Of a stretch of 53,856 nucleotides of DNA, positions 8,701 through 41,634 are shown piece after piece. The notes beneath the pieces were generated by a model that was not told the DNA's origin, searched no databases, and saw only the letters and a list, made by a program, of their open reading frames with translations. Every line of letters starts with the position of its first letter. Position 1 is the first letter of the stretch. Source of the stretch: Thermoanaerobaculia bacterium (GTDB taxonomy: Bacteria > Acidobacteriota > Thermoanaerobaculia > Multivoradales > UBA5704); contig JBGAGQ010000041.1 of the NCBI GenBank assembly GCA_044226625.1, forward strand, positions 1 to 53,856, in the 5' to 3' direction. The position numbers and the translations under genes are program-made.

Positions 8701-11700
8701 GCCCGCGGGGATCGTCAAGGGGCGTTTCGTCACCTCGGACGGCACCACCCCGGCGGCCGCGGCGCTCGTCGTTCTCACGAGCCACCCGGGAACCTTCAGC
8801 GCGTACGCCCTGCGCAAGGCGGCGGAGCCCGACGGCACGTTCAGCTTCCCGGTCCGTCTGGGGATCTTCACGATCGACGCCGCGCAGGACCTCGGGCCGG
8901 GGCGCTTCTTCGCCTTCGGCCGGATCGACACGACGGGAAAGGTGTTCGATTTCGGCACGGTGGTTCTCGACGACGAGAGCCCGAGCCTGCTCGGCATCGA
9001 GCCGGCCGATGGCGCCACCGGCGTGCCGATCGGCCAAGCGATCCGGGTGCGTTTCAGCGAGCCGGTGCAGCCGCTCGGATCGCTCGAAGCGATGATCGGC
9101 CTCACCCAGGTCGCGAGCACGTCGAGCTCGGGCGGCCAGGCGATCCCGAAGGTCACCACCTACGCGGACGGCGGCGCGACCCTCGTCGTCACGCCGGGGT
9201 TCCCGCTCGGCAGCGAGAGCTTGTATCGGGTTTCGGTCGAGGCGTCGCAGATCCTCGACCACGCCGGCAGAGGTCTGCCCGGCGGCCGGGTGGAAACGCA
9301 TTTCGCGACCGCCGACGTGGTGGCGCCGAGCGTAGTCTCGGTCGTTCCCTCCTCCGGCGCGATCCAGGTGCCGCTCGCGGCCGACGTCCACCTGACGTTC
9401 AGCGAGGCGCTCGCCGCCGCGAGCCTCGACGGCTCGCCGTTCCAGCTGTTCGACCGGACCGCGGGCGTCGGCGTCGCGACCGCCTTCTCCGTCGCGAGCG
9501 GCGGCCGTGAGGTCGTGCTCACGCCGCTTTCTCCCCTGCCCGACAGCCACGCGTTCGAGATCCGGGCGACCGGCGTACGAGACCCTTCAGGCAACGTGAT
9601 GCCGCCCTATACGTCGCTCTTCACCAGCCTCGACACGACGCCTCCCGCGGTCGCGCTCGCGGCGCCGTCGCCGATCTATCGAGACGTCTCGATCGCGCTC
9701 GTCGCGACGCCGGTCGCGAGCCCGGATGTCGCCTCGGTACGCTTCTATCGAGGCGACTCCCTGCTCGGGACGGTGGCCGCATCGGCATCGACGCCGCCTT
9801 TTACCTGGAGCTACTTGCCGACAGCCGCGGACGAGACGGCGGGAACGGTGACGTTCGCCGCCGAGCCGATCGACCGAGCGGGCAACGTGGGCGCTCGCGC
9901 CACCGCGATCGCCACGGTCGAGCCGCCGCGGATCGCCCTGACCGTGCCGCCGACGGTCGTCCGCGACGAGGCCGCGACGCTCGAAGTCCGGCCGGTCGTC
10001 GGACCGCAGATCGCCTCGGTCCGGTTCTTCAAGGGCGAGCAGCTTCTGGGAACGGCGACCGCCTCCGCTTCGACGCCGCCGTTCGTCTGGACCTACACGC
10101 CGGACGCTGCGGATGCCGCCGCCGGTTCGATCACCTTTGGCGCGGAGGCGGTCTACCTCGCGGGCAACACCGGACCGCGGGTGACCGCGACCTCGACGGT
10201 CGACGCGAACGCGCCGTCGCAGGTCACGATCACCACCGTGCCGTTCGTCGAGGTTCATCCCGGCGCGAGCCTTCAGGTGAACGCCGAGATCTCGGACGCG
10301 AACGGCATCGTTTCGTGGTCGCTCCTCCTCTCCGGGGCGGTCGAGCAGACGTTCGAGTCGGGCCCAGTGTCGGGCGACTCGTTCTCGATCTCGGAGACCG
10401 TCGTGGTCCCGAGCGATCCCGCCGTTCTCTCGGTCGCGATCCGGGTGCGCATCGTGGATGGGCTCGGCAAGGTCTTCCTCTCCGACCCGGTCTCGGTCCC
10501 GGTCCAGGCTCCTCCGACTCTCTCGTTCGCCTGCCCGGAGTCGCGGAACTTTCACGACACCGTCTACGTCGCTCCGGGGCTGCGGGTGCACTTCGTCTTG
10601 AACGCCGCCGACGCGAGCGGCATCTCGAACGTCTCGACGACCGGCCCGCTCGGTTCGTTCGCCGATACGGCCGCGCCGTTCGAATTCGATCTGACGGTAC
10701 CCGGCACGGGCACCACGTTCACGCAGAGCTTCACGGCGGTCGATCGGACCGGCGCGAGCCGTTCGATCACCCGCCGGTTCCTGGTGATCTCGGGCGCGGC
10801 CACGCTCGGAGCGGACGTGACGCTCGGGGGCGAGCGCCCGAATCCTTATCTGGAGGTCGGCGCGCTGGTGGTGTCGAGCGGGCGGACGCTCACGCTCGAC
10901 GGGTATGTCGAGCTGCCGGCGCTGATCGTCGCCGACGGCGGCCGGGTCGTGGTGCTGGCGGCGACCGGGACCGAGGTGCCCGACGCCAAGCTCTACCTGT
11001 TTCCCCAGGGGAGCCAGCCGGCGCTCTGGGTGGCCTGCCAGGGGACGCTCGACGCGAGCGGCCGCGGCTTCTTGGGCGGCGGCTCGGCCTCGCAGTCATC
11101 GGCCGGCGCCCCCGGACGGGGCGTTGACAACGATCCGACCGAAGGGGCTCCCGCCGGCACCGGTGGCAGCCACGGCGGGCGTGGCGGCGCGGCGTCGCCG
11201 AACCTCGATCCGCTCCTCGGCGCGCCGTTCGACTCGCCGTTCTGGCCGACCGAGCCGGGGGGCGGTGGTGGCGGCGGCGCGACCGCGGACGGCACGGCAG
11301 GCGGCGGCTCGATCGAGATCTACGGCTTCGGCAACGAGATCGTGATCGACGGCGCGGTGCTGGCCAACGGCGCGAGCGGCGCGGGGCCGACCGGCGCGGG
11401 CGGTTCCATCCTGATCTCGCACAACGACCTGCCGATCTTCCCCGAGCTTTCGGCGACGGCGAGCCGCGAACGGATGCGCAAGGGTTCGGCTCCGCGTGCT
11501 CCTGGAGCGGTCGGCAACGCCTCGCCGTTCGAGGCGCTCCGCGGCGCGGGCAAGCTGGAAGCCTCGGGCGGGGCGTCGACCTCGAACGGACCGACCGGCG
11601 GAGGCGGCCGAATCGCCCTCTGGGGGATCGTCGAAGGGGCGTTTCGCGATCGCGCGGTCGCCGCGGGAGGGAGCACCGGATCTACCGTCCCGTCGGAGGT

Positions 11701-28267: not shown

Positions 28268-28612
28268 ATGACGAAAGACAGTCTGGCTACCCGAACATTT
28301 CAGCTATGGGAGTACCGTGTCAGCCACGGTTCCCTCCTGATTCGTAGCCCTAGAGTTCAGGGCGTAAAAACGAACCTGGACATTGTCTTCTTGGGGGTCG
28401 AGTACTTGGCCCTACCGCGATACCTTCACGGTGTTGAGATCGTGGAAGCACTGCCTGACGAGCTGGCAAGGCTGGGAGAGATTTTGGGAGAGCGGATGTC
28501 GGAATTGCTCGTCCGTGTTCTTGTTTCGTCAGGGCAACGGCATCCGATAGTGGCTGCCTTTGTTCGATTAGATGAAAACGAAAACGAAATATTTGATAGT
28601 CCTTTCACGTAG
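28268..28612 (+). CDS. Putative immunity protein for CT1
   Basis: 114-aa lower-GC ORF starting 8 bp after the toxin stop; N-terminal RTFQLWEYRVSHGSLLIRS. Confidence 0.8.
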   Translation: MTKDSLATRTFQLWEYRVSHGSLLIRSPRVQGVKTNLDIVFLGVEYLALPRYLHGVEIVEALPDELARLGEILGERMSELLVRVLVSSGQRHPIVAAFVRLDENENEIFDSPFT

Positions 28613-28615
28613 TAC

Positions 28616-28873
28616 GGTATCCCGTCCACCTGTCCGCCGAGGTTCCTCGGTGCCCCGCAGGCTGAGTTTTGGCGGCTTCCGCGCTCGTTCGGTGTCCCGT
28701 CCACCTGTCCGCCGAGCCTCCCCGCTGTTCCTGGGGGCTGATTTTGGTGGCTTGTCCGCTCGTTCGGGCTCCCTGAACGGCCCGCCTACCGACTCCACTT
28801 TCGGCTTTTCCCCCTCCTCAGACCGTTCTACAGGTACCCGAGCCATCCGGAAGCACACCTTCTCTGTGGACGG
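28616..28873. repeat. Cassette-boundary repeat, copy 1 (short unit A + long unit B)
   Basis: GTCCACCTGTCCGCCGAG at 28624 and 28699. Unit B is bounded by inverted CCGTCCAC (28697) / GTGGACGG (28866). Confidence 0.9.
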
Positions 28874-28912
28874 TCGAGTGCTTTGTCTTCGGCGCTCCAC
28901 TTCCCTTCTTCG

Positions 28913-29827
28913 TCAGTCTGGCACGTAGAAGCCTGAGAGCACGCCGCTCCAAGCCTGAAACCGCCTGCGTTTGCCAGTTCGCGCCGGCTCTCTCTCGCCC
29001 TTCCAGACCTCGGCGGGGCGTGAGACCCTGCAGGTTCTGGTGCGGCCTGACGTGGTTGTACCAGAGGCGAAAGAGGGGCAGGTCCGGCAACTCTTCGCAC
29101 GCGCTCGGTTTTGCGGCCCGCAGCTCGCGCAGGCATTGCTTGAAGGTGCCGAAGAAGCGTTCGATTCGCCCGTTCTGCCAGGGGGCATGGAGTACGGTCC
29201 GCTGGTGGCGGATGCCCAGCAGCCAAAGGGCCAGACCGAAGAGCTTCGACGTAAAGGTGGCCTCGTTGTCGGTTCGGAGCGTCGCTGGCCGACCGAAGCG
29301 ATCGATCAGGTCGAGTACCACGCGAAGCACGGCGACGGTGGTCTTGCGATCGAGCTCCTGAAGCGCAAGGCAGGCGCGAGTGCCGTGATCGATCACGCCG
29401 AGGAGGGGGCGTAGACCGCTCTTGGTTCCAACGTACGTGAGATCGAGCGCCCAGATGCAGTTCTTCCCGTAGCGCGCGGTCTTCGCTGCCGCAGGTTGCG
29501 GCGGGCTCGCATTACCTCCTCCTGACTGCTTCTGAGCAGGTTGGCGACGTAGCTCTTGCCGATGGTCATCCCCTTCGGCCCGGAGTACAGGCGGTTGAAG
29601 GTGCACGCGATCGTACGGCAGCCGGCCTTCGGAATCAGCGCCTTGAGCCGGATCACTTCCTTCCGGACCCAGGGCGGCTTGGGGCGGAAGCCCAGGTGCA
29701 CCCGGGCGGTCGGAGTGCTCGCTTGGCGTCGGCGCGTTAAGGCCAGGATGCTTTGGCGATGGCCGCGGAGAGCCAGTAGGGCCGCAAGTCCGACGAGCCC
29801 GAGGAGGCAGAAACACAGAGCCATCAT
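28913..29827 (-). pseudogene. DDE integrase-core (rve) protein, copy 1 (subtype alpha), two frameshifts
   Basis: Same 915-bp length as the intact copy at 33473-34387. One G is missing near 29468 and one extra G is present near 29016, so the protein is split across frames in the ORF track. Confidence 0.88.
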
Positions 29828-29878
29828 GGGCTGAAGGTACCGCAGGGGACGAGTTCTCGGCGCCGATCGCTGCGAGGG

Positions 29879-29962
29879 TTCTCGGACGGCTCGGACCCAC
29901 GTCAGGGCGGTTCGGATCGAGGTCTGGACGGCTCGGATTGGGGTCTGGACGACTCGGGCTCA
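29879..29962. repeat. Four imperfect 21-bp tandem units
   Basis: TTCTCGGACGGCTCGGACCCA / CGTCAGGGCGGTTCGGATCGA / GGTCTGGACGGCTCGGATTGG / GGTCTGGACGACTCGGGCTCA, lying between the integrase upstream end and the orphan Rhs cassette. Confidence 0.65.
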
Positions 29963-29966
29963 GACG

Positions 29967-32873
29967 TTCGCTTACGACGCGGCCCACAACGTCCGCGAGA
30001 TCCGTGACCCCAACGGCAACGTCGTCGTCCAAGAACACGACGGGGCCAACCGCCTCTTGGTGCGCACCATCACCCCCGCTCCGGGTGTCGTCGGTCCTAC
30101 GTCCGAGACGTACGCCTATGACGGCTTGAGCCGATTGACGTCGACAACCTCCGGTGGGCAGACGGCCGGCTTCGAGTACGACTCGCTCTCCCGCGTCGTA
30201 CGGGAAACCCAGAACGGTCGCGCGGTCGAGTCGACGTACGACGACGCGGGCAATCGTGCGGCGCTGCTCTATCCCTCGGGCCTGAAGGTCGGAACCCACT
30301 TCGACGAGCTGGATCGGCTTCGATCGGTGATGAGAATGGGTACCTCGGACACGCCGGTCGCGTCTTACGGTTATCGCGGGCAGGATCTCCTGGCGGAGCG
30401 AAATGTCGGCGGCCTCTCGGGCCGGATGGCGTTCGACGGCGCCCGGAGGCTCACCGCGACGACGTATCAAGACCTGGCCTCGGCGACGGCCTTCGGCGAG
30501 ACCCTGGGTTGGAACAAGCGCAATCAGCTCACGAGCCAGTCGCGTGCCGACCTGAACGACGCAGCGAAGCTCTACCAATACGACCCGGCCGGAAGGATCA
30601 CGGGAGCCCTTTCGTATCAAGGAGAGCTGCCCGCCGACCTGACGGGACTCGACGGCGAGCGTTTCCGTTACGACACCGCCGACAACCTGACCGAGCAGTC
30701 GAAGAAGGCGTTCGGGATCGACCAAGTGACGACGCTGCCCGTCGACCCCTCCGGTCGCAACCGTCCCGCTTCGATCCACGGCATTCCGCTCACCTGGGAC
30801 CCGAACGGCAACCTCACCCACAAGGGCGACCTGCACTTCGAGTACGACTACCGGAATCGCCTCTCTCGGGTGACCCGCAGCGGCCAGGAGGTCGCGACCT
30901 ACGGCTATGACGCCTTCAACCGTCGGGTCGAGAAGTCGGTCGATGGGAGCACCCAGCTCACCTCGTGGTCCGGCTGGCAGGCACTGGAGAAGTCCGAGAA
31001 CGGTGAGCCGACGGAACGGAGAATCTTCGGCAACGGCATCGACGAGCTGGTCCAGGTGGAGAAGGTCGAAGGGGGAGCGAGCCTGACCTACGCGCCGGTC
31101 TATGACGCGAAGGGAAACCTCGCCCTGCTGACCGACGCGAACGGCAAAATCGTCGAACGGGCCAATACCTCTACCTACGGCCAGACCACCTGGTCTGCGG
31201 ACTCGACGCCGCCGACGATCACGCAGTTGCGGCTCCGGAGCGGAACGCTGGAGCTCCGGACGAGCGAGGAGGTACGCCTGGCGGCACTCTCGACGGCGCT
31301 CACGAGCGGCAAAGCCACCCTCGTCGAGACGGGGACGAATCACCGAATCCAGGTACTTGCGACGCAGCCTTCAAGCGTCACCCGGACCCGTCTAGTGCTG
31401 ATGCCCTCGACCGCGATTGCGCCCGGAACCGAGCTGCGCCTGCGCCTGGAGCCGGAATCGATCGAGGATCTTTTCGGCCACTCGCTCGATGAGCCTTTCG
31501 AGCAGACGCTCACCTGGCAGCCCACCGCCGACACCGTCCTCGCGGACACGGCGCCGCCCGAGGTATCGCACGTCCTCCTGCGCGGAACGAGCGTGGAGGT
31601 CGGCTTCAATGAGCCGCTGGATGCCGCGGGTGTCGCCGCCGCGATCCTCGTGGACGGCCAAGCACAGACCTGGACCGTAGGAAGCGACGGCGAAATCTGG
31701 ACCGCCGCCAACCTGCCGGATAGCGACCATACCCTGACCATTGGCGCCTCGCCGCTCGATCTTTCGGGTAAGCCCCTCGCGGAGGCATTCGAAAAACTCT
31801 TCCGGATCGAGGCGAGCCACCTCGACCAGATCGTCTACCGGAAACCCGATTCCTCGGAGCTTCCGACGTCGGCGACCGGTGCCGTGCTTACCTTCCAGGG
31901 CTTGGAGCTCGATCCAGAGACGGGCCTGCTCTACGTCCGGAATCGGTACCTCGATCCGGAGTTGGGACGGTTTGTCACGGCGGACCCGCTGGGGTATCCG
32001 GATGGGCCGAGCGGGTATGGATTTGGGGCAGGGGATGCAGTGAATGGACGGGATCCGATGGGGCTTGCCAATGCAACTTCTGGTGTTTCGATTCCCAAAG
32101 CTAACCCAGCGGCTACCGAGGACGCCAAGCGGAGTCTTAAATTTCTGGGAAGGATGGCCTCCAGGGCAAATACACACCTCTTAAACATACCTGTCTACGT
32201 CGCGCGGATTCCGGGCGCAACCATGGCATCGCTCGGTAATTTGTCGAAACACGCGAGTTACTTTGCCGACTGCTTGATCGTGCACACTGAAGAGTGCGCG
32301 CGAGAATTACTGGGCGCGATTAGATCCACTCCGGATTACGTCGATTCCCAAACGAGGGCCTACCTCGACGCACCGGCTGAGGAGCATGCTGATGCGTGGA
32401 GCGATCAATTGACGCTGACGGCTCTTTTCGGGCTTTTGGGTTCTACAAGTGAAGTCGAAGCTACATACCTGGGGAACATGAGGGCTCCTCGATTACCATT
32501 GCCTGAACCTGAGGTTTCCCCTCTTCCCTCTGTTCCAAAGCCAGGGCAGGTCCCAAGAGCACTATCGAATGCGGAGGTTCGGGCCTGGTACAACGCTCGG
32601 GTTCGTACTGTCGATGTGTCCGGCGCCCTCACAAGGGAAACCGCGGAGCGAGTTTTTGCAGCGCGGAATGCACTTAAGGTCGAGGCTCGCGGTATGATGG
32701 GAGACAGGGCTGCAGCGGCTGAATTGGAACGCACGGATCCGATCCGGACATTCGAGTTCTACGTCCAGAAGTACTCGGGGCAAGGATACTCAGGAGAGTT
32801 ACTCTGGCAGCGGATCATTCAGGGAGGCAGAACACCAAATAAGGCCGTGAACGAGCGGTTCGGGGTAGACTGA
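29967..32873 (+). CDS. Orphan (start-less) Rhs core + toxin tip CT2
   Basis: 29967-32065 is a colinear near-identical copy of 25314-27412 (constant offset 4653). It diverges right after DPMGL into a different tip (..LSNAEVRAWYN..RNALKVEARGMMGDR..VNERFGVD). No signal peptide or ATG start. Confidence 0.92.
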   Translation, partial: FAYDAAHNVREIRDPNGNVVVQEHDGANRLLVRTITPAPGVVGPTSETYAYDGLSRLTSTTSGGQTAGFEYDSLSRVVRETQNGRAVESTYDDAGNRAALLYPSGLKVGTHFDELDRLRSVMRMGTSDTPVASYGYRGQDLLAERNVGGLSGRMAFDGARRLTATTYQDLASATAFGETLGWNKRNQLTSQSRADLNDAAKLYQYDPAGRITGALSYQGELPADLTGLDGERFRYDTADNLTEQSKKAFGIDQVTTLPVDPSGRNRPASIHGIPLTWDPNGNLTHKGDLHFEYDYRNRLSRVTRSGQEVATYGYDAFNRRVEKSVDGSTQLTSWSGWQALEKSENGEPTERRIFGNGIDELVQVEKVEGGASLTYAPVYDAKGNLALLTDANGKIVERANTSTYGQTTWSADSTPPTITQLRLRSGTLELRTSEEVRLAALSTALTSGKATLVETGTNHRIQVLATQPSSVTRTRLVLMPSTAIAPGTELRLRLEPESIEDLFGHSLDEPFEQTLTWQPTADTVLADTAPPEVSHVLLRGTSVEVGFNEPLDAAGVAAAILVDGQAQTWTVGSDGEIWTAANLPDSDHTLTIGASPLDLSGKPLAEAFEKLFRIEASHLDQIVYRKPDSSELPTSATGAVLTFQGLELDPETGLLYVRNRYLDPELGRFVTADPLGYPDGPSGYGFGAGDAVNGRDPMGLANATSGVSIPKANPAATEDAKRSLKFLGRMASRANTHLLNIPVYVARIPGATMASLGNLSKHASYFADCLIVHTEECARELLGAIRSTPDYVDSQTRAYLDAPAEEHADAWSDQLTLTALFGLLGSTSEVEATYLGNMRAPRLPLPEPEVSPLPSVPKPGQVPRALSNAEVRAWYNARVRTVDVSGALTRETAERVFAARNALKVEARGMMGDRAAAAELERTDPIRTFEFYVQKYSGQGYSGELLWQRIIQGGRTPNKAVNERFGVD

Positions 32874-33091
32874 TGACGACGATTCGATCGGTCAATGAGT
32901 TGACGAGAGCGACAGTCACCTGGAGGAGGGTGGCACCTGGCTGCTGGCTCACAACGGTCGCAGGGGAGGAGTGTTCGTTGGAGATGAATGATTTTCCAGA
33001 TGAGCCTATGTATACAGTCCGAGCTTTTGGGGAATCTGTTGACATCGAAGACGCCCCAGGCTCGTGGGCAATAGAGATGCCCCCACCGTGA
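32873..33091 (+). CDS. Putative immunity protein for CT2
   Basis: 72 aa; TGATG overlap with the CT2 stop; acidic MNDFPDEPMYT motif. Confidence 0.8.
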   Translation: MTTIRSVNELTRATVTWRRVAPGCWLTTVAGEECSLEMNDFPDEPMYTVRAFGESVDIEDAPGSWAIEMPPP

Positions 33092-33170
33092 ACTTGCAGT
33101 TATGTGCGCTGTCTCTCAAGATTTTCCAGCGAGATTCTTACCGCTGCGACTACAGTATGTTGATTCCCCG

Positions 33171-33436
33171 TTGTGCCGTTGTCCCGTCCACCTGTCCGCC
33201 GAGCTTCTCGGTGCCCCGCAGGCTGAGTTTTGGCGGCTTCCGCGCTCGTTCGGGTTGTGCCGTCCACCTGTCCGCCGAGCCTCCCGGCTGTTCCTGGGGG
33301 CCGATTTTGGTGGCTTGTCCGCTCGTTCGGGCTCCCTGAACGGCCCGCCTACCGACTCCACTTTCGGCTTTTCCCCCTCCTCAGCCCGTTCTACAGGCGC
33401 CTGAGCCATCCGGAAGCACAGCTCCTCCGTGGACGG
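33171..33436. repeat. Cassette-boundary repeat, copy 2 (A + B)
   Basis: Core at 33186 and 33262, preceded by tandem TTGTGCCG/TTGTCCCG. B is bounded by GCCGTCCAC/GTGGACGGC. Confidence 0.9.
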
Positions 33437-33472
33437 CCGATCTCCCTGTCTTCGTCTCTTCCCCTTCCCTCC

Positions 33473-34387
33473 TCAGTCCAGCACGTAAAAGCCTGAGAGC
33501 ACCCCGCTCCAAGCCTGAAACCGCCTGGGCTCGGCAGTCTGCGCCGGCTCGGTCTCGCCCTTCCAGGCCTCGGCGGGCGTGAGACCCTGCAGGTTCTGGT
33601 GCGGCCTGACGTGGTTGTACCAGAGGCGAAAGAGTCGGAGATCCGGTATCGCTTCGGCCTCGCTCGGCCTTGCGGCCCGCAGCTCTCGCAGGCATTGCTT
33701 GAAGGTACCGAAGAAGCGTTCGATCCGCCCGTTCTGCCAGGGGGCATGGAGTACGGTCCGTTGGTGCCGGATGCCCAGCAGCCATAGCGCCAAGCCGAAG
33801 AGCCTCGAGGTAAAGGTGGCCTCGTTGTCGGTCCGAAGGGTGGCCGGCCGACCGAAGCGATCGATCAGGTCGAGCAGGACGCGGAGCACTGCGACGGTGG
33901 TCTTGCGATCGAGCTCCTGAAGCGCGAGGCAGGCGCGAGTGCCGTGATCGATCACGCCGAGGAGGGGGCGTAGACCGCTCTTGGTTCCAACGTACGTGAG
34001 ATCGAGCGCCCAGATACGGTTCTTCCCGGTAGCCTGCGGTCTTCGCCGCCGCAGGTTGCGGCGAGCGCGCATCACCTCCTCCTGACTGCTTCTGAGCAGG
34101 TTGGCGACGTAGCTCTTGCCGATGGTCATCCCCTTCGGCCCGGAGTATAGGCGGTTGAAGGTGCACGCGATCGTGCGGCAGCCGGCCCTCGGAATGAGCG
34201 CCTTGAGCCGGATCACTTCCTTCCGGACCCAAGGCGGCTTGGGGCGGAAGCCCAGGTGCACCCGGGCGGTCGGAGTGCTCGCTTGGCGTCGGCGCGTTAA
34301 GACCAGGATGCTTTGGCGATGGCCGCGGAGAGCCAGTAGGGCCGCAAGTCCGACGAGCCCGAGGAGGCAGAAACACAGAGCCATCAT
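33473..34387 (-). mobile_element. Intact DDE integrase-core/transposase (304 aa, subtype beta) with N-terminal hydrophobic segment
   Basis: MMALCFCLLGLVGLAALLALRG...PKPPWVRKEVIRLKA...IWALDLT...LRTDNE..(35 aa)..NGRIERFFGTFK...WYNHVRPHQNLQGLTPAEAW. Canonical D-D(35)-E spacing counted by hand. The start is set by comparison with copy 1; the ORF-track extension to 34705 is antisense Rhs. Confidence 0.92.
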
Positions 34388-34444
34388 GGGCTGAAGGTAC
34401 CGCAGGGGACGAGTTCTCGGCGCCGATCGCTGCGAGGGTTTTCC

Positions 34445-36665
34445 ACGATCACCTCTGCTCCGGGTGTCGTCGGCCCTACGTCTGGGACGTACGCCTATGA
34501 CGGCTCGAGCCGATTGGCGTCGACGACCTCCGGTGGGCCGACGGCCGGCTTCGAGTACGACTCGCTCTCTCGCGTCGTGCGCGAAACTCAAAACGCTCGC
34601 GCTGTCTAGTCGACATACGACGACGCGGGTCGAGCGGAAGGCGGACGACCAAACCCAGACGACGGTCTGGAACGGCTGGCAGTCGATCGAAGAGTACGCG
34701 GGCAACGCCCTCGACGAGCAGAAAGTCTACGGCCTCGGTCTCGACGAGGTGGTCGAGCGGGCGAAAGCGGACGGGGCGGGCGGCTTCGATCGCTATGGGT
34801 TGCTCTATTCCTCGACGGGCGAGCCGGCGGTGCAGATCGCCGCGGACGGCCGCCCCGTCGAGCGGTATGAACACTCCACGCTCGGAGAACGGAAAGTCCT
34901 TGTCGACGTCGAGCGCCCGACCGTAGGCCAGGTGTCGGCGACGCCGAGCAGCATCCGGATCGAGCTGTCGGAGCAGGTTCGGGCGCCGGGTGAGACAACC
35001 GGTGCCTCCGGTTCGCTTCGCGCCCAAGGGCCCGATATCGCTCTTACCGACGCCGCGACTGGCGCCTCGATCGATGTGATCGCGAAGCTCGCCCCCGCGC
35101 CCGGCCCCGGCCTCGAGCGCCGCCGGTTGGAGATCGACGTGCCGAGCCCGCCGCCTGCTGGCACTCAGGTGAAGTTGAGCCTGGCACCGCAAGCGCTCGA
35201 GGACTTCTTCGCCAACCGCCCGGACGGCATGTCGGAGTGGACCTTCGCCTGGCCGGCATCGGGACTCTCGATCGTCGAGGACACGGCGCCGCCTGAGCTG
35301 GTGCGGGCGCTGCTCCGCGACGGCAAGATCGAGGCGACGTTCTCGAAGGCGGTCACGCCTGAGGGCTTGGGCGATGCCGTCAGCGTCGACGGTGCGTCGG
35401 TCGCCTGGACTGTTTCTGGGAACGGACTCGTCGCGACGACCTCGGCTGCGCTTTCGGGAGGAGCGCATCACGTCGAATTCGGCACGGCCCCGATCGACCT
35501 CGCGGGGAAAGGTTTGGCGACTCCGATCGCGGTCGACCTGACCGTTCCTTCGGCGCTCCTCCGCGCCCAGGCGGGGAACGTCCTCCTCGTCTTCGAGCCC
35601 CGCAATCCGCGGGAGTTGGACCAATCGCCGACCGGACAGCAGGCGAGCTTCCAAGGCCACCCGGTCGATCCGGAAACGGGCTTCGTCTACCTGCGGAACC
35701 GGTACTTCGATCCGGAGCTGGGACGCTTCATCACGGCGGACCCGATGGGGTACCCGGACGGCCCGAGCGACTACGCCTTCGGGGCTGGGGATGTGGTGAA
35801 TGGGCGGGATCCGATGGGGCTCGAAAGACCGCTTCCAAGGTCCATTCAGCCGATTCGTCCTGACGAATCGCTGAGCGAACAGATGATGGAGGACCAAGCT
35901 TGGAAGGCATTCTGGCGCTATCAGGACCGTCTCGAACGGATCGAGAACGCGATCGCTCGCGGCCTCCAAAGTGTTCCGAATACCGCCACTGAGGAGGAGT
36001 GGCGAGATGCCGTTCAGAGCGAGCTCGCGCGTGAGATCGGTCCAACCTACGCTGAGGCGGAAATGTGGAATCGCTTCGGTCCCGCAGGTCCCTGTGAGAC
36101 GAATCAAAGCAGGATCTTTAGGAATGTCGGCAACACGGCCGGTACAATTGCTCCCCACCTCTGGTTCGCGTTTCAGGTGGAGATGGCTGTTCTTCCTTTC
36201 GCCGATGCGGGTGCGGTCGGTGTCGAAGCCTCGTATCTGGAGGGCTTGAGGGCTCCTCGGGTGCCTCTGCCGGAACCGCAGATTCCTAGGCAATGGGGCA
36301 GCGGGTTTTCTGGCCCGGAAGAGTTGACGCAGAACCTCCCGAGGAGGATTGCAACAGTCGATCCCAGCACCGTAAGGTTTAGCCAGGACAGCATCGGCCG
36401 AACCTTCGGCGAGGGCGGGACGCTTCGCGAGGCGATCGAAGGACTGCGAGACGGTTCGATATCTCCGGAGGCTTTCCCTCCTATACGTGTCTTTGAGCGC
36501 AACGGCCTCAGGTTTACGCTTGACAACCGACGGTTGTTTGTTTTTCAACAGGCAGGCGTCCCGATACCTTCGGTTCAGGCAACCGTAGAGGAGATCGCGG
36601 CAGATGCATGGAAGTTCACAACACGTAACGAAGGCATTTCAATTCGCGTCAGAGGTGGACTATGA
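34445..36665 (+). CDS. Orphan chimeric Rhs core + toxin tip CT3 (ParB/Srx-like)
   Basis: 34445-34630 is a decayed copy of 25413-25598 (TAG at 34607). From ~34626 a divergent Rhs core reads open to DPETGFVYLRNRYFDPELGRF...DPMGL (35822). The tip has VRFSQDSI...PPIRV...FTLDNRRL. Confidence 0.88.
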
Positions 36666-36916
36666 AGCTTGTCGAACGTGCCCAGGAAGTTAGAACACGC
36701 GAGGATCTGGAGGTTTTCGTGCTCGAGCTAGGCGCAGACCTCCAGGCGAATCCGAGCGAATGGACGAACCCGAACCTGGGGTCATTTCTCGAAGCGATGG
36801 CAGCCTGGATCTCAGACATGGAAGCCTACTATCAGAACACCGGCCAGGAGTACTCGGATCTGTCACCGTGGAAAGTCGTTGCCGACATGTTGATGGCTGC
36901 GCGCATTTACGAGTAG
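36662..36916 (+). CDS. Putative immunity protein for CT3 (resembles DUF7660)
   Basis: ATGA overlap with the toxin stop; motif WxNxxLxxFLEAMAAWxxD...W..vAxxLxAAxIYE. Family name recalled, not searched. Confidence 0.8.
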   Translation: MKLVERAQEVRTREDLEVFVLELGADLQANPSEWTNPNLGSFLEAMAAWISDMEAYYQNTGQEYSDLSPWKVVADMLMAARIYE

Positions 36917-36921
36917 CTTGA

Positions 36922-37107
36922 GTTGTGCCGTCCACCTGTCCGCCGAGCCTCCCGGCTGTTCCTGGGAGCTGATTTTGGTGGCTTGTCCGCTCGTTCGGGC
37001 TCCCTGAACGGCCCGCCTGCCGACTCCACTTTCGGCTTTTCTCCCTCCTCAGCCCGTTCTACAGGTGCCCGAGGCACCCGGAAGCACACCTTCTCTGTGG
37101 ACGGTCG
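36922..37107. repeat. Cassette-boundary repeat, copy 3 (solo unit B, no integrase)
   Basis: Core at 36930, 13 bp after the immunity stop; similarity ends 3 bp past GTGGACGG. Confidence 0.9.
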
Positions 37108-37316
37108 GTGGCCTTGGGGGCAACTATCCAGAGCCACGACTGAGTCTCGCCGGAACGCAGGAACTAGAATTACTGGAGGTTGCAGTGGGAGATCAACGGG
37201 TCCAAGTCGAGGCGGAGACCTTTGTAGGGCTCACCATCTCTGGCCCCGTTGATCTTCTTGACAAGCTCCAGGGGATGCTCACAGATGGTACTCGTCGAGA
37301 GGCTCGGTTCAATTAG
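37108..37316 (+). pseudogene. 5'-truncated small gene, probably an orphan immunity gene
   Basis: Open frame ..AGTQELELLEVAVGDQRVQVEAETFVGLTISGPVDLLDKLQ..; the nominal ORF start lies inside the repeat. Confidence 0.5.
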
Positions 37317-37487
37317 TTGTCCCTGAGCAGGAAAATTACAGACTCTGGGACGTTTCCGGTGGGGACGTTGGTCGATACCGCTCGGGCGGACCGAATCCTC
37401 GTCCCGGTAGGAAACAATGGTCTGGCGGTCTATCAACTCGCACCCAATGGGACTGCGAAGCTGAAGACGATATTGACTGCGAGGTGA
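37317..37487 (+). pseudogene. 56-codon toxin C-terminal remnant (CT4)
   Basis: Hand translation LSLSRKITDSGTFPVGTLVDTARADRILVPVGNNGLAVYQLAPNGTAKLKTILTAR*; its TGA overlaps the next ATG. Too short for the ORF track. Confidence 0.6.
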
Positions 37488-37696
37488 TGGAAAGCAACGA
37501 GGAGTTCGAACTCAGAGTGAGCGAGGACGATCGAGGTGGCGCGTACCTCAGGTTGCCGGGACACCCGGGAACAGCACCCGGAGTCGTAAAGAGGAGCGTG
37601 AGCCTGCGAGAGCTAATACATGAGTACGTGGGGCCGGACGTCAACCTCGATTTCTGTGAAGGGGACAGACTCATCGGGATCGAAGTTGTTGGATAG
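37487..37696 (+). CDS. Putative immunity/antitoxin, DUF2283-like
   Basis: 69 aa from ATG 37487 with GAGG RBS; AYLRL...VNLDF...LIGIEV pattern typical of DUF2283. Confidence 0.75.
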   Translation: MESNEEFELRVSEDDRGGAYLRLPGHPGTAPGVVKRSVSLRELIHEYVGPDVNLDFCEGDRLIGIEVVG

Positions 37697-37737
37697 AGGG
37701 AGATTGGAGCGACTCTGTCTTGGCTCGCAGATCAAGT

Positions 37738-38031
37738 GGTGTCCCGTCCACCTGTCCGCCGAGGTTCCCCGGTGCCCCGCAGGCCGAGTTTTGGCGGCTT
37801 CCGCGCTCGTTCGGGTTATCTGAACGGCCCGTCTTCCAACTTTTCTCTTGTGTGCCGTCCGTCTGTCCGCCGAGCCTCCAGGCTGTTCCTGGGGACTGAT
37901 TTTGGTGGCTTCCGCGCTCGTTCGGGCTCCCTGAACGGCCCGCCTACCGACTCCACTGTCGGCTTTTCCCCCTCCTCAGCCCGTTCTACAGGAGCCCGAG
38001 GCATCCGGAAGCACACCTTCTCTGTGGACGG
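37738..38031. repeat. Cassette-boundary repeat, copy 4 (extended A + B)
   Basis: Core at 37746 and variant GTCCGTCTGTCCGCCGAG at 37857. Confidence 0.9.
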
Positions 38032-38067
38032 TCGAGTGCTTTGTCTTCGGCGCTCCACTTCCCTTCG

Positions 38068-38503
38068 TCAGTCTGGCACGTAGAAGCCTGAGAGCACGCC
38101 GCTCCAAGCCTGAAACCGCCTGCGCTTGCCAGTTCGCGCCGGCTCTCTCTCGCCCTTCCAGACCTCGGCGGGCGTGAGACCCTGCAGGTTCTGGTGCGGC
38201 CTGACGTGGTTGTACCAGAGGCGAAAGAGGGGCAGGTCCGGCAACTCTTCGCACGCGCTCGGTTTTGCGGCCCGCAGCTCGCGCAGGCATTGCTTGAAGG
38301 TACCGAAGAAGCGTTCGATTCGCCCGTTCTGCCAGGGCGCATGGAGTACGGTCCGCTGGTGGCGGATGCCCAGCAGCCAAAGCGCCAGACCGAAGAGCTT
38401 TGAGGTGAAGGTGGCCTCGTTGTCGGTTCGGAGCGTCGCTGGCCAACCGAAGCGATTGATCAGGTCGAGTACCACGCGAAGCACGGCGACGGTCGTCTTT
38501 CGA
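38068..38503 (-). pseudogene. DDE integrase copy 3 (alpha), 5'-truncated
   Basis: Matches the 3' half of copy 1 (ends GFYVPD); lacks the first catalytic Asp. Confidence 0.9.
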
Positions 38504-38954
38504 CGGCTCTTTTCGGGCTTTTGGGTTCTACAAGTGAAGTCGAAGCTACATACCTGGGGAACATGAGGGCTCCTCGATTACCATTACCTGAACCTGAGGT
38601 TTCCTCTCTTCCCTCTGTTCCAAAGCCAGGGCAGGTCCCAAGAGCACTATCGAATGCGGAGGTTCGGGCCTGGTACAACGCTCGGGTTCGTACTGTCGAT
38701 GTGTCCGGCGCGCTCACAAGGGAAACCGCGGAGCGAGTTTTTGCAGCGCGGAATGCACTTAAGGTCGAGGCTCGCGGTATGATGGGAGACAGGGCTGCAG
38801 CGGCTGAATTGGAACGCACAGATCCGATCCGGACATTCGAGTTCTAGGTCCAGAAGTACTCCGAGCAAGGATACTCAGGAGAGTTACTCTGGCAGCGGAT
38901 CATTCAGGGAGGCAGAACACCAAATACGGCCGTGAACGAGCGGTTCGGGGTAGA
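38502..38954 (+). pseudogene. Duplicate of the CT2 toxin domain with a nonsense mutation and no immunity gene
   Basis: Colinear with 32417-32869 (offset 6085); about 8 substitutions including TAC>TAG at 38845-38847. Confidence 0.92.
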
Positions 38955-39012
38955 AACCTTTACGAGGTTTTGGTGGGAGGGGAAGGGCGGCGGCGGGGGT
39001 GTCGCTTGACAT

Positions 39013-39114
39013 CCTGAACGGCCCGCCTACCGATTCCACTTTCGGCTTTTCCCCCTCCTCAGCCTTTTCTACAGGCGCCCGAGCCATCCGGAAGCACACC
39101 TCCTCCGTGGACGG
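39013..39114. repeat. Cassette-boundary repeat, copy 5 (partial unit B)
   Basis: CCTGAACGGCCCGCCTACCGA...GTGGACGG; the core 18-mer is missing. Confidence 0.85.
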
Positions 39115-39150
39115 CCGATCTCCCTGTCTTCGTCTCTTTCCCTTCCCTCC

Positions 39151-39693
39151 TCAGTCCAGCACGTAGAAGCCTGAGAGCACCCCGCTCCAAGCCTGAAACC
39201 GCCCGGGCTCGCCAGTCTGCGCCGGCTCGGTCTCGCCCTTCCAGGCCTCGGCGGGCGTGAGACCCTGCAGGTTCTGGTGCGGCCTGACGTGGTTGTACCA
39301 GAGGCGAAAGAGTCGGAGGCCCGGTATCGCTTCGGCCTCGTTCGGCCTGGCGGCCCGCAGTTCTCGCAGGCATTGCTTTAAGGTACCGAAGAAGCGTTCG
39401 ATCCGCCCGTTCTGCCAGGGGGCATGGAGTACGGTCCGCTGGTGGCGGATGCCCAGCAGCCAAAGCGCCAAGCCGAAGAGCCTCGACGTGAAGGTGGCCT
39501 CGTTGTCGGTTCGGAGCGTCGTTGGCGGACCGAAGCGATCGATCAGGTCGAGCACCACGCGGAGCACGGCGACGGTGGTCTTTCGATCGAGCTCCTGAAG
39601 CGGTAGGCAGGTGCGAGTGCCGTGATCAATCACGCCGAGGAGGGGGCGAAGGCGGGTGTTGGTTCCGACGTACGTCAGGCCGAGCGCCCAGAT
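39151..39693 (-). pseudogene. DDE integrase copy 4 (beta), 5'-truncated, first catalytic Asp changed to Gly
   Basis: Ends GFYVLD like copy 2; IWALGLT instead of IWALDLT; similarity stops near 39693. Confidence 0.88.
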
Positions 39694-39804
39694 GCTGCCG
39701 GTTTGGCGGTGCGAAGCATCAGGTTCCAGGCGGGAGCTGTTGCAACTAAGATACGCTTTCTCCCTCAGGCTGCGGAGTAAATTGTTCCCTTCTTGGAGTA
39801 GGGG

Positions 39805-40032
39805 GTGTTGGTGGAGTGGTGTTGCGCATCGTTCGAAGGTCATTTCGAGAATGCAGGTCGTCGTGGCCTGGCCGTGTTCTTTGCCGGGGGCGAGGCAAGG
39901 CCGATGTTCGTTCTTCAAGTGCGCGCAGTCGAAGGTAACCCAGAGGGGTTCGCGTTTGGTGGTCCAATCTCTCTGGTCACTGAAACACTGAAACGGGGCT
40001 GCAATATTGTCCTTGGTGCGGACGCCACTTAA
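39805..40032 (+). pseudogene. Possible 3'-truncated orphan immunity gene
   Basis: WCCASFEGHFENAGRRGLAV...FVLQVRA; lower GC; same orientation as the other cassettes; purine-rich RBS-like stretch upstream. Confidence 0.4.
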
Positions 40033-40196
40033 TGACTTGGTACGGGCAGGGCCTAGAGCTGCTGACCAAATGCGACCTAGCAGTCGGTTGGAAGTGACCA
40101 TTTCGGGTTAAACTTCCAGGCATCCGGCCTGGCGAGACTACCGGCTGCCCCCAGGGCCTGAATTTGCTGCCTGTCCGCTCGTGCGGGGCTCTTGAG

Positions 40197-40487
40197 CTAT
40201 CCGTCTTGGGTGGAATGGCGCCTGCGGCGGTTGTAGAAATTCTCGATGTAGTCCTCGATCTGCCAGTGGGCCTGCGCCATCGTCGCCCACCGTCTGCGAT
40301 GCTCCAGTTCCTTCTTGAGGGTCGCAAAGAAGCTTTCGGCGGCCGCGTTGTCCCAGCAGTCGCCCTTTCGGCTCATGCTCGCTCGATAGCCTCGACTCCT
40401 TATCCGACGCTGGTAGACCGTCGACGCGTATTGGCTGGCTTGATCGCGGTGCACGATCGAGCCAGCCCTCCGGCTGACGTGTCGCAA
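40197..40487 (-). mobile_element. IS3-family OrfB transposase remnant
   Basis: IVHRDQASQYAS...SMSRKGDCWDNAAAESFFATLKKE...YIENFYNRRRRHS. Confidence 0.88.
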
Positions 40488-40913
40488 TCGCGTGATCCAA
40501 CGGCGCGTGGGCCACGGCGAGCTCCAAACGTGGACTTAGCTACCAGCCCGCAACTCGACGGGAGAAAAGGTCCAGCAAGACCGCCAGATAGAGCCAGGCC
40601 TCCGCCGTCCAGAGGTCGAAGCGGATGCGGATCTTTGCTTAGATTCCGATGGCTTAATTTATTTCTTATGTCTTGGTAAGGAGAGTCGAAGGCATGGCCG
40701 CACCGAACTATTACGAGGGAGCCTGGGATCTCGCGGCTCGCCTCAGGGCTGAGGGCGGTCGTCGGCGGAGTCACCCATTGCTCAGGTAGTCGCTAACTTG
40801 GGCTACCCAAGCTGGAAACCGGCTTGGCTCTTCACTATCTCCGACGACGCCCTGGAAGAGGATTGGATTAACGTACGCCGCAACACAGAACAGGATGCGG
40901 TGCGATCGATCGG

Positions 40914-41144
40914 CGAATTCGATTTTCTCTCCCCCGAATTCGATTTTCCGGTCTGCGAATTCGAATTTCTCCCCCGCGAATTCGTTCATCGGGCTCCCGA
41001 ATTCGAATTTCTGGGCCCCGAATTCGAATTTCCGGCGCCCGAATTCGAATTTCTCTCTCGCGAAATCGAATTTCTGGGTCCCGAATTCGAATTCGCCGTC
41101 CGCGAAATCGAATTACTTAGCCAGAAAATCGAATTCGGCCAGGA
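40914..41144. repeat. 11 x 21-bp tandem array (conserved CGAATTCGAATT + variable 9 bp)
   Basis: Units read directly, e.g. CGAATTCGATTTTCTCTCCCC, CGAATTCGAATTTCTGGGCCC, CGAAATCGAATTTCTGGGTCC. Confidence 0.9.
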
Positions 41145-41190: not shown

Positions 41191-41267
41191 TGGTGCGCCC
41201 GAGAGGATTCGAACCTCTGACCTACAGCTTCGGAGGCTGTCGCTCTATCCAGCTGAGCTACGGGCGC
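41191..41267 (-). tRNA. tRNA-Arg(CCG)
   Basis: GCGCCCGTAGCTCAGCTGGATAGAGC-G-ACAGC CTCCGAA GCTGT...GGTTCGAATCC...CGGGCGCACCA; CCA encoded. Confidence 0.97.
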
Positions 41268-41355
41268 CTTGGTTTGCGAACGCCGGGGGTCGAGAGGGTG
41301 GCTCGACCTTCGTTCCGTCGTTCCGCTTTGAAGAACCGCGCCACTTTAGAGGAAG

Positions 41356-41432
41356 TGGCCTGCCTGGAGGGATTCGAACCCCCGACCCGCGGCTTAGAAG
41401 GCCGCCGCTCTATCCAACTGAGCTACAGGCAG
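41356..41432 (-). tRNA. tRNA-Arg(TCT)
   Basis: CTGCCTGTAGCTCAGTTGGATAGAGC-G-GCGGC CTTCTAA GCCGC...GGTTCGAATCC...CAGGCAGGCCA. Confidence 0.97.
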
Positions 41433-41488
41433 CCGAGGCACGCAGCCCGTCACCGTAAATCGTGGGAAGAGTCTCCCGGCGATTGAAT

Positions 41489-41562
41489 TCGGGGCGCCCA
41501 GATTTGAACTGAGGACCCCCTGCGCCCAAGGCAGGTGCGCTACCAGGCTGCGCTACGCCCCG
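41489..41562 (-). tRNA. tRNA-Pro(TGG)
   Basis: CGGGGCGTAGCGCAGCCTGGTAGCGCA-CCTGC CTTGGGC GCAGG...TTCAAAT...CGCCCCGA; CCA not encoded. Confidence 0.96.
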
Positions 41563-41634
41563 ACGGAAACGCGCGAGCGAGTCTAGTGCAGCCCGAGCAA
41601 GGGGGTCAAATCGGCGGCTCGACGGAGGGCGAGG

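Follow-up and report, generated by a model that had tools for sequence, protein, structure and literature searches.

The bacterial contig JBGAGQ010000041.1 (assembly GCA_044226625.1, a Thermoanaerobaculia bacterium), 53,856 nt long and referred to here as the window, carries an intact transposase gene whose 304-residue product probably belongs to an IS481-like family predicted to be tethered to the membrane by an N-terminal helix, and whose element is present in the window as one-ended copies that appear to have multiplied together with units of an Rhs locus. A sequence-only reading of the window had described this gene as a DDE (Asp-Asp-Glu) integrase with a predicted N-terminal membrane anchor. 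The coordinates it gave are right, and the gene, copy 2 below, runs on the minus strand from the ATG at 34387 to the stop codon at 33475–33473. While the enzyme belongs to an ordinary class, its conserved predicted anchor, one-ended element and repeated placement at toxin cassettes are unusual. To our knowledge, DDE transposases of the IS3, IS481 and retroviral type are treated as soluble, nucleoid-acting enzymes, and a membrane anchor is not a known trait of the class. A full-text literature search returned no report of a transmembrane-anchored DDE/rve transposase, nor of the present family at polymorphic toxin loci. If true, a conserved anchor in a widespread clade would represent a new control over where and how often a transposase acts, while placement at cassette ends bears on how Rhs-type toxin loci acquire new C-terminal modules and assemble orphan arrays. 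The canonical two-ended relatives described below constitute a directly testable system.

The predicted N-terminal anchor

The product of copy 2 (P0001) begins with MMALCFCLLGLVGLAALLALRGHRQ, and its first 20 residues contain no D, E, K, R, H, N, Q or P. R21, H23 and R24 follow this uncharged run in the coding frame, with three further arginines at positions 32–34, as expected from the earlier description of an apolar N-terminus that gives way to basic residues. The Kyte-Doolittle maximum over a 17-residue window (KD17) is 2.76. In the AlphaFold2 (AF2) model, built on a 44-sequence alignment with a mean predicted local distance difference test score (pLDDT) of 88.9, residues 2–25 form a helix (pLDDT ~90) that is followed by a linker at residues 26–50 (pLDDT 50–67), helices at 52–114, an RNase H-like core at 125–260, and a C-terminal hairpin at 287–302 that carries the invariant W293, G295, L297, and G299. 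The helical region, which is helix-turn-helix (HTH)-like, opens with a conserved KPPWV..E..RLKAL motif. Both rve (46.2 bits, cut-off 32.6) and rve_3 (52.7 bits, cut-off 26.5) of Pfam match above their gathering thresholds, and the catalytic triad consists of D129 and D187, invariant in the alignment of 44 homologs, and E223, kept in at least 90%, with 35 residues from D187 to E223. An HTH-like region and a complete D-D(35)-E core, both named in the sequence-only reading, are thus present. The top Foldseek matches of the model are retroviral integrases in intasomes (best E 2.6e-12).

Across the family, the N-terminus is kept in character and not in sequence. A word-seeded protein search yielded 8000 scored candidates, 1904 of them with E ≤0.001, from which the 120 listed homologs (44–83% identical to P0001, mostly 290–320 aa) were used. 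Together with the query, 103 of these 121 proteins were evaluable, in that 17 or more residues precede the conserved K/R-P-x-W-V motif, and a segment was called transmembrane (TM)-like when its KD17 was ≥1.6. An N-terminal segment reaches this value in 83 of the 103 and a value of ≥2.0 in 72, while KD17 ≥2.0 occurs outside the N-terminal region in only one. The hydrophobic segment starts within the first 8 residues in 91/103 proteins and has no charged residue ahead of it in 74/103, and the 15 residues past it hold a median of five R/K and no D/E. Most members share a segment of 17–23 uncharged residues at the extreme N-terminus; behind it come an R/K cluster and a linker modelled with low confidence. 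TM-like N-termini are likewise found in 38 of 56 evaluable representatives at 50% identity. In the 44-sequence alignment the amino-acid sequence of the N-terminus diverges while its hydrophobicity is kept, which points to selection on the property. Homologs that lack the stretch, or start downstream of it, had been named beforehand as the finding that would speak against an anchor; the opposite is seen among the proteins and in the two DNA samples that follow.

The DNA-level frame test was run because gene callers choose starts. In the first sample, comprising 66 evaluable copies out of 80 genome loci, a TM-like segment is encoded in the coding frame of 46/66 copies versus 7 and 6 in the other two frames, in-frame stops per 55 codons number 0.29 versus 1.65 and 1.08, and a start codon lies ahead of the segment in 57/66 copies. 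The low-GC copies of this sample behave alike (14/19 hydrophobic in the coding frame, 4 and 3 elsewhere). A second, independent sample of 80 metagenome loci plus 6 loci from relatives, 58 of them evaluable, gives 45/58 versus 5 and 3; in the locus counts of both samples, one genome can contribute several copies and one study several contigs. Judged from these sequences, a hydrophobic N-terminal helix appears close to universal in the family, with the full-length TM-like form in about 70–80%.

Several observations weigh against a membrane anchor. About 20–32% of evaluable members have only a shorter, W/L/F/R-rich, amphipathic-looking N-terminus, as in 20/66 copies of the first DNA sample and 18/56 of the 50%-identity representatives. 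The hydropathy threshold is not specific: of two rve open reading frames (ORFs) recovered as a control from three other rve loci of the source genome, one passes, its IS3 OrfB-type N-terminus reaching 1.87, and KD17 ≥1.6 is also reached in the rest of the protein in 22/103 family members. The membrane call is itself a prediction drawn from hydropathy, charge pattern and the AF2 helix, and such a helix says nothing on lipid. These points would fit a soluble protein whose N-terminal helix, hydrophobic or amphipathic, is engaged for example in transpososome multimerisation or in a peripheral, reversible contact with membrane or DNA. We consider such a helix unlikely in view of the length, uncharged composition and extreme N-terminal position of most segments, the R/K cluster and low-confidence linker behind them, and the contrast between 72/103 and 1/103 at the higher threshold.

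Doubt also attaches to the start codon. No Shine-Dalgarno-like sequence precedes the window ATG, a scan of 33000–34800 found no sigma-70-like promoter and no terminator consensus, an in-frame GTG (V43) is a possible alternative start in the window copy, and 18 of the 121 predicted genes begin at the conserved motif, downstream of it, or fewer than 17 residues ahead of it. If translation began downstream, at V43 for instance, the hydrophobic stretch would be untranslated and the upstream open frame would be a 5′ leader. That arrangement seems rather improbable, as the frame remains open, and its product hydrophobic, in different phyla and at different G+C contents despite sequence divergence, the frame bias holds in low-GC copies and is replicated in the second sample, and in most copies the segment is preceded by a start codon. 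The intact copy 2 may be expressed.

The uncharged hydrophobic helix (~17–25 residues) and the positive-inside charge pattern are those of a single-pass N-out/C-in signal anchor. The family architecture comprises a very short N-tail, a ~20-residue hydrophobic helix, a ~25-residue basic disordered linker, HTH-like helices, the D,D(35)E rve core, and a conserved C-terminal hairpin. By the positive-inside rule the helix would insert N-out/C-in with few N-terminal residues outside; the DNA-binding and catalytic domains would be cytoplasmic and joined to the inner membrane by a short basic tether. In ToxR/CadC-type regulators and in FtsK/SpoIIIE, transmembrane segments and a linker hold a cytoplasmic DNA-acting domain at the inner membrane. 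By analogy, tethered proteins may act on chromosomal DNA, although the folds and functions of these proteins are unrelated and none is a transposase. As to what the anchor might do, it would most likely limit diffusion of the enzyme, and with it favour cis action and low activity. Ranked second, it might bias the enzyme to membrane-proximal DNA, such as the genes of exported giant proteins, which would also explain the neighbourhoods described below. Coupling to DNA uptake or cell contact comes third and is unsupported.

Element ends and family placement

The conserved right end of the element is GCGGAC-N3-5-GGACGGGACA, mostly 200–240 nt past the stop codon, with divergence immediately beyond. 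The 10-mer GGACGGGACA is exact in 46/80 genome loci, on the gene's strand every time. Among the evaluable copies of the first sample it is exact in 47/79 and has one mismatch in 23/79 (70/79 with at most one), and 55/60 copies of the second sample likewise have at most one mismatch. The window contains six right-end motif matches versus 0.17 expected, and whole-genome scans of five genomes gave 4, 9, 1, 1, and 25 matches, in a single orientation per genome, with 0–1 in the reversed control. The fourth match in the source genome, on contig C23, was rejected as chance, being inside a 1310-aa ORF (5786–9718, minus strand, locus L091, G000:C23) that looks CHAT/NB-ARC/TPR-like by eye only, no family search having been made. 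The right end is often tandemly reiterated: the window has two ~75-nt units, and other loci have as many as five. RNA folding of the 3′ non-coding region gave no structure signal (z = −0.55), and an Rfam scan of 28400–40200 (E up to 1) returned only a chance HgcF match.

An inverted left copy of this end is rare. A whole-locus scan allowing up to 3 mismatches found it in L018 alone among the first 80 loci; a candidate with 3 mismatches in L082 is probably chance. In the second sample it is present in L106, L110, L121, L123, L127, L134, L150, and L163. Such two-ended relatives are canonical insertion sequences of 1330–1388 bp bounded by the inverted repeat TGTCCTGTCCGCGTGTCCGC (left) and GCGGACGCGCGGACAGGACA (right), the left repeat lying ~180–250 nt ahead of the ATG where measured. 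L018, L106, L121, L123, and L127 have 20-bp inverted repeats and a single unframeshifted ORF, and in L018, whose protein was read, the N-terminus is hydrophobic too. Inverted repeats of IS481 elements begin with TGT, and the size and the TGT...ACA termini of the canonical copies, in line with ISfinder descriptions, fit IS481-type elements. Left ends can be reiterated as well, with two lying 64 nt apart in L018 (8416–8500) and three in L123 (1586, 2121, 5610). Right-end-like motifs also stand alone, apart from any transposase gene.

At all other loci the left boundary falls 50–170 nt before the ATG and has no repeat, including in multi-copy genomes with readable boundaries such as Nitrincola, with three copies of ~1240 bp, and a 'Multivoradales' metagenome-assembled genome (MAG); many contigs are too short for neighbours or the left end to show. 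In the Nitrincola copies (L082, about 3380–3400 and 9796–9816), a perfect stem-loop of 7 bp (GCGGGCT-AAGGT-AGCCCGC) lies upstream of the start codon, ~25 nt in from the left boundary. Upstream alignment of a betaproteobacterial subgroup showed no common left end among the 6/17 loci retained by the motif filter, and a search for an empty site of the L076 element, covering its own genome and 40 others of its genus, found no match in any of the others. In the window, copies 1 and 2 diverge after about 53 nt upstream of the gene, the extent of shared sequence that had been noticed from the letters. A weak subterminal likeness of these 53 nt to the right end, seen by eye, was dropped as unconvincing. 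As far as their sequences tell, the window copies look left-truncated, without most of the 5′ leader, and are probably not autonomously mobile.

The earlier assignment to the IS3/IS481 type stands in part. IS481 (NF033577) is indeed the best NCBIfam model for P0001, at 112.8 bits, and 44/44 aligned members match both the IS481 and the IS3 models (best E 6.3e-36 and 1.1e-31), none near the cut-offs. The IS481 alignment covers only model positions 61–284, leaving residues 1–51 of P0001 outside and the N-terminal DNA-binding region of the model without a counterpart. IS3 (NF033516) scores 104.3 bits, and the single ORF is without the OrfA-OrfB frameshift organisation. Three findings count against the reading of an IS481-like insertion sequence: the curated cut-offs (224 and 160 bits) are reached by neither model, no recognisable target-site duplication or consistent direct repeat flanks the canonical copies, and upstream and whole-locus searches of the window found no left inverted repeat, only the right end. 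On sequence comparison, the gene is best taken to encode a cut-and-paste-type DDE transposase from a separate IS481-like family of ~1.3-kb insertion sequences that has no name yet.

Like IS481, the family has a single, unframeshifted ORF of ~300 aa that encodes an rve D,D(35)E core, in a ~1.3-kb element with TGT...ACA ends. Unlike IS481, it scores about half the curated cut-off, replaces the unmatched model positions 1–60 with a hydrophobic helix and basic linker, has ~200–240 nt of non-coding DNA before a very conserved right end, and in most copies lacks a left inverted repeat. It shares the catalytic fold and triad with IS3 OrfB and retroviral integrases, but not the OrfA/OrfB frameshift or the zinc-binding N-terminal domain, and it adds the hydrophobic helix.

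The family is widespread. A hidden Markov model (HMM) search of 1.84 billion representatives recovered 403 clusters (50% identity) at E ≤1e-30 and 4503 at ≤1e-10, and relatives occur at 539 places in one-genome-per-species contigs, including Acidobacteriota, Gamma- and Betaproteobacteria, Nitrospirota, and Fibrobacterota, and at no fewer than 572 places in metagenome contigs; of these more than 1,100 loci, 166 were fetched. Within the source lineage the gene is found in 0/7 other species of the genus, 0/18 genomes of the family, and 2/12 genomes from other families of the order, a patchy distribution that fits horizontal spread. A plasmid tblastn search returned only distant IS3-type matches plus one 39% relative, and the ESM Atlas only generic 'transposase/hypothetical' rve clusters.

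Toxin cassettes in the window and elsewhere

The transposase copies of the window lie within a locus of the Rhs polymorphic-toxin type (Table 1). RHS_repeat is found in orphan fragment 1 and in the main 5253-aa protein, the core end reads ...RYLDPELGRFVTADP...GRDPMGL, and a small ORF stands past each module. These small downstream ORFs appear immunity-like, with toxin and immunity roles putative. From left to right the window holds the main Rhs gene, a small ORF, copy 1, orphan 1 with its small ORF, copy 2, orphan 2 with the DUF7660 ORF, and the solo right end; further right come copies 3 and 4, with a 99%-identical second copy of the orphan-1 tip between them, and then three tRNA genes. The transposase genes are convergent with the Rhs modules and, on the plus strand, the right end starts 6 nt past the stop at 28612, 8 nt past that at 36916, and 89 nt past that at 33091. 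Each orphan Rhs fragment starts at the left boundary of the element, at differing positions of the Rhs core.

Table 1 Positions of the transposase copies, element ends and Rhs genes in the window
Feature	Position	Strand	Remarks
Intact transposase ORF (copy 2), rve/DDE enzyme	33473..34387	-	304 aa plus stop; from ORF list, Pfam, NCBIfam, alignment
Predicted N-terminal transmembrane (signal-anchor) helix	34313..34384	-	codons 2-25; AF2 helix, KD17, uncharged run
Basic low-confidence linker, probably disordered	34238..34312	-	codons 26-50; pLDDT 50-67; Arg-rich among homologs
Helical HTH-like region	34046..34234	-	codons 52-114; alignment, AF2; aligns with IS481 model from position 61
RNase H-like catalytic core D129/D187/E223	33563..34030	-	codons 120-275; Pfam, alignment, AF2, Foldseek
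3′ non-coding right-end region of copy 2	33180..33472	-	two tandem ~75-nt units, each ending GGTGGACGG(G/C)ACA at 33180-33192 and 33256-33268
Upstream sequence common to copies 1 and 2, ~53 nt	34388..34440	-	no left inverted repeat; Rhs-core sequence beyond
Copy 1, full length, two frameshifts	28916..29827	-	matches copy 2 as three pieces
Right-end motifs of copy 1, 28618-28630 and 28693-28705	28618..28705	-	start 6 nt after stop of immunity-like ORF 28268-28612
Copy 3, C-terminal ~147 aa only	38068..38511	-	right-end motifs 37740-37752 and ~37851-37870
Copy 4, residues ~95-304 only, 84% identical	39151..39786	-	fused in frame to unrelated upstream sequence
Solo right-end motif without transposase gene	36924..36936	-	8 nt after stop of DUF7660 immunity-like ORF 36662-36916
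Main Rhs/YD-repeat protein, 5253 aa	12498..28259	+	Sec-type signal peptide; 3′ end converges on copy 1
Orphan Rhs fragment 1 (RHS_repeat)	30057..32873	+	homology to main Rhs from ~29950; small ORF 32873-33091 next
Orphan Rhs fragment 2	34464..36665	+	begins at left boundary of copy 2; immunity-like ORF 36662-36916 next

Copy 1 is 95% identical to copy 2 over residues 1–123, matching the near-identity of the two N-termini reported from the sequence alone, and then carries a 1-nt deletion and a 1-nt insertion. Rhs-core segments are duplicated at 99% identity with a 4.6-kb period. Judging from this arrangement, the four window copies, one of them intact, have most likely multiplied together with 4.6-kb Rhs C-terminal/immunity units by homologous recombination or duplication. 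The orphan-1 C-terminal tip (32417–32716) recurs with 99% identity at 38502–38801, between copies 3 and 4. Logan contigs of four DNA runs are fragmented across the repeats, with unitigs spanning 32417–33236 and 34411–36951, and stretches that they leave uncovered carry no weight here.

Outside the window, tblastn with the window Rhs proteins gave matches in 27/80 genome loci and 19/86 loci of the second sample, and those listed are all on the strand opposite the transposase. A convergent ORF of at least 600 aa lies within 3 kb of the right end in 30/54 copies with at least 1.5 kb of flank, though these copies come from about 14 genomes and are not independent. Pfam searches of 59 neighbouring ORF pieces identified RHS_repeat (5), RTX repeats (4), Lipase_3 (3), and DUF637 (2), along with PT-HINT, Tox-REase-7, SUKH-1, a Tle1-like phospholipase, and a teneurin-type YD shell, and housekeeping families as well. 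A plasmid relative adjoins a giant 'tandem-95 repeat protein', and in a betaproteobacterial subgroup the giant neighbour is on the transposase's own strand. Of the canonical two-ended copies, L121 adjoins an Rhs module, L123 a DUF4258 protein with an HTH/MqsA-like neighbour, and L106 and L127 ordinary genes, ChaC and PNP_UDP_1 being those found beside canonical copies. The association with giant secreted-protein and toxin genes, across phyla, is strong but not absolute. As such, the link with cassettes drawn in the sequence-only reading is real and general, recurring in other loci; the further suggestion that the enzyme mediates cassette acquisition is not supported. The window copies look left-truncated and possibly immobile.

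In E. coli, Rhs loci contain H-rpt (ISAs1-type) elements, which belong to another transposase family. The resemblance lies in a mobile-element gene beside Rhs toxin/immunity modules; unlike H-rpt, the window shows no ISAs1 Pfam match. In Snodgrassella and Gilliamella, Rhs-associated integrase-like genes have been described beside Rhs C-terminal modules and suggested to help in capturing or transferring Rhs sequences (Steele et al. 2017, PMC5727410). Their likeness to the present family is by description only, and the passages on these genes in that article do not mention a membrane anchor. Excerpts of PMC4612132 give transposase counts only, and those of a polymorphic-toxin survey (Zhang 2012, PMC3482391) contain no integrase and one unrelated transposase mention.

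One speculative extension of the anchor reading invokes spatial target choice. The tethered enzyme would meet the genes of giant proteins (Rhs, RTX, CdiA-like, tandem-95), which coupled transcription, translation, and export would keep at the membrane, and would accumulate at their 3′ ends, and one-ended copies with reiterated right ends might serve as joints for capturing new toxin-immunity cassettes and displacing old ones into orphan arrays. We regard this scheme as a long shot. Lower still is our expectation that the tether puts the recombinase at the envelope and couples DNA uptake or cell contact to capture of toxin cassettes. The copies do sit exactly at cassette boundaries, with the right end 6–8 nt past two immunity-like stops and orphan Rhs fragments beginning at the left boundary at differing core positions, and the convergent layout by Rhs and other giant toxin genes recurs. 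However, no link of the family to competence or contact genes turned up, though no systematic search for one was made, canonical copies also lie beside ChaC, PNP_UDP_1, and the DUF4258 protein with its HTH/MqsA-like neighbour, and the 99%-identical Rhs duplicates are explicable by homologous recombination or duplication with no need of an integrase. Least credible of all is a cleavable Sec signal peptide that exports the enzyme: the stretch has a signal-peptide-like length, but P0001 has no charged n-region before the hydrophobic region, as in the 74/103 proteins uncharged ahead of the segment, the basic residues directly after the segment disfavour translocation of the C-terminal part, the genuine Sec peptide of the neighbouring main Rhs protein (MRIPMPSLRTLRSF...AARA) looks different, and DDE enzymes require DNA and Mg2+ in the cytoplasm.

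The C-terminal tip of orphan Rhs 2 (36309–36653, residues 615–730) shares 39% identity with that of a giant ORF, convergent with the adjacent transposase of the family, at L076 (13026–13367) in the complete genome of Stenotrophomonas nitritireducens, the same toxin-tip type adjoining the same element in different phyla. The MAG that includes loci L014–L032 has 25 right-end motifs, all but one in two regions (C4 163–270 kb, C5 10–61 kb) where full-length Rhs genes of 2,500–3,100 aa alternate with transposase copies, and in most of these copies another co-directional ORF ends just upstream of the transposase gene.

Toward the right of the window, a fragment of a different IS3-OrfB-like rve transposase (...DQASQYAS...DNAAAESFF...) occupies 40197–40487 on the minus strand, and unrelated sludge-metagenome contigs pile up at 40128–40578, as expected of a widespread insertion sequence. 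A tandem array of at least eight 21-nt units (CGAATTCGAATTTC...), which contains an imperfect inverted repeat of 71 nt, spans 40914–41144, where an ORF reads PEFEF repeats. It stands just before a cluster of tRNA genes for Arg-CCG, Arg-TCT, and Pro-TGG (41191–41563, minus strand), which forms the right border of the Rhs/transposase region, as at many genomic islands.

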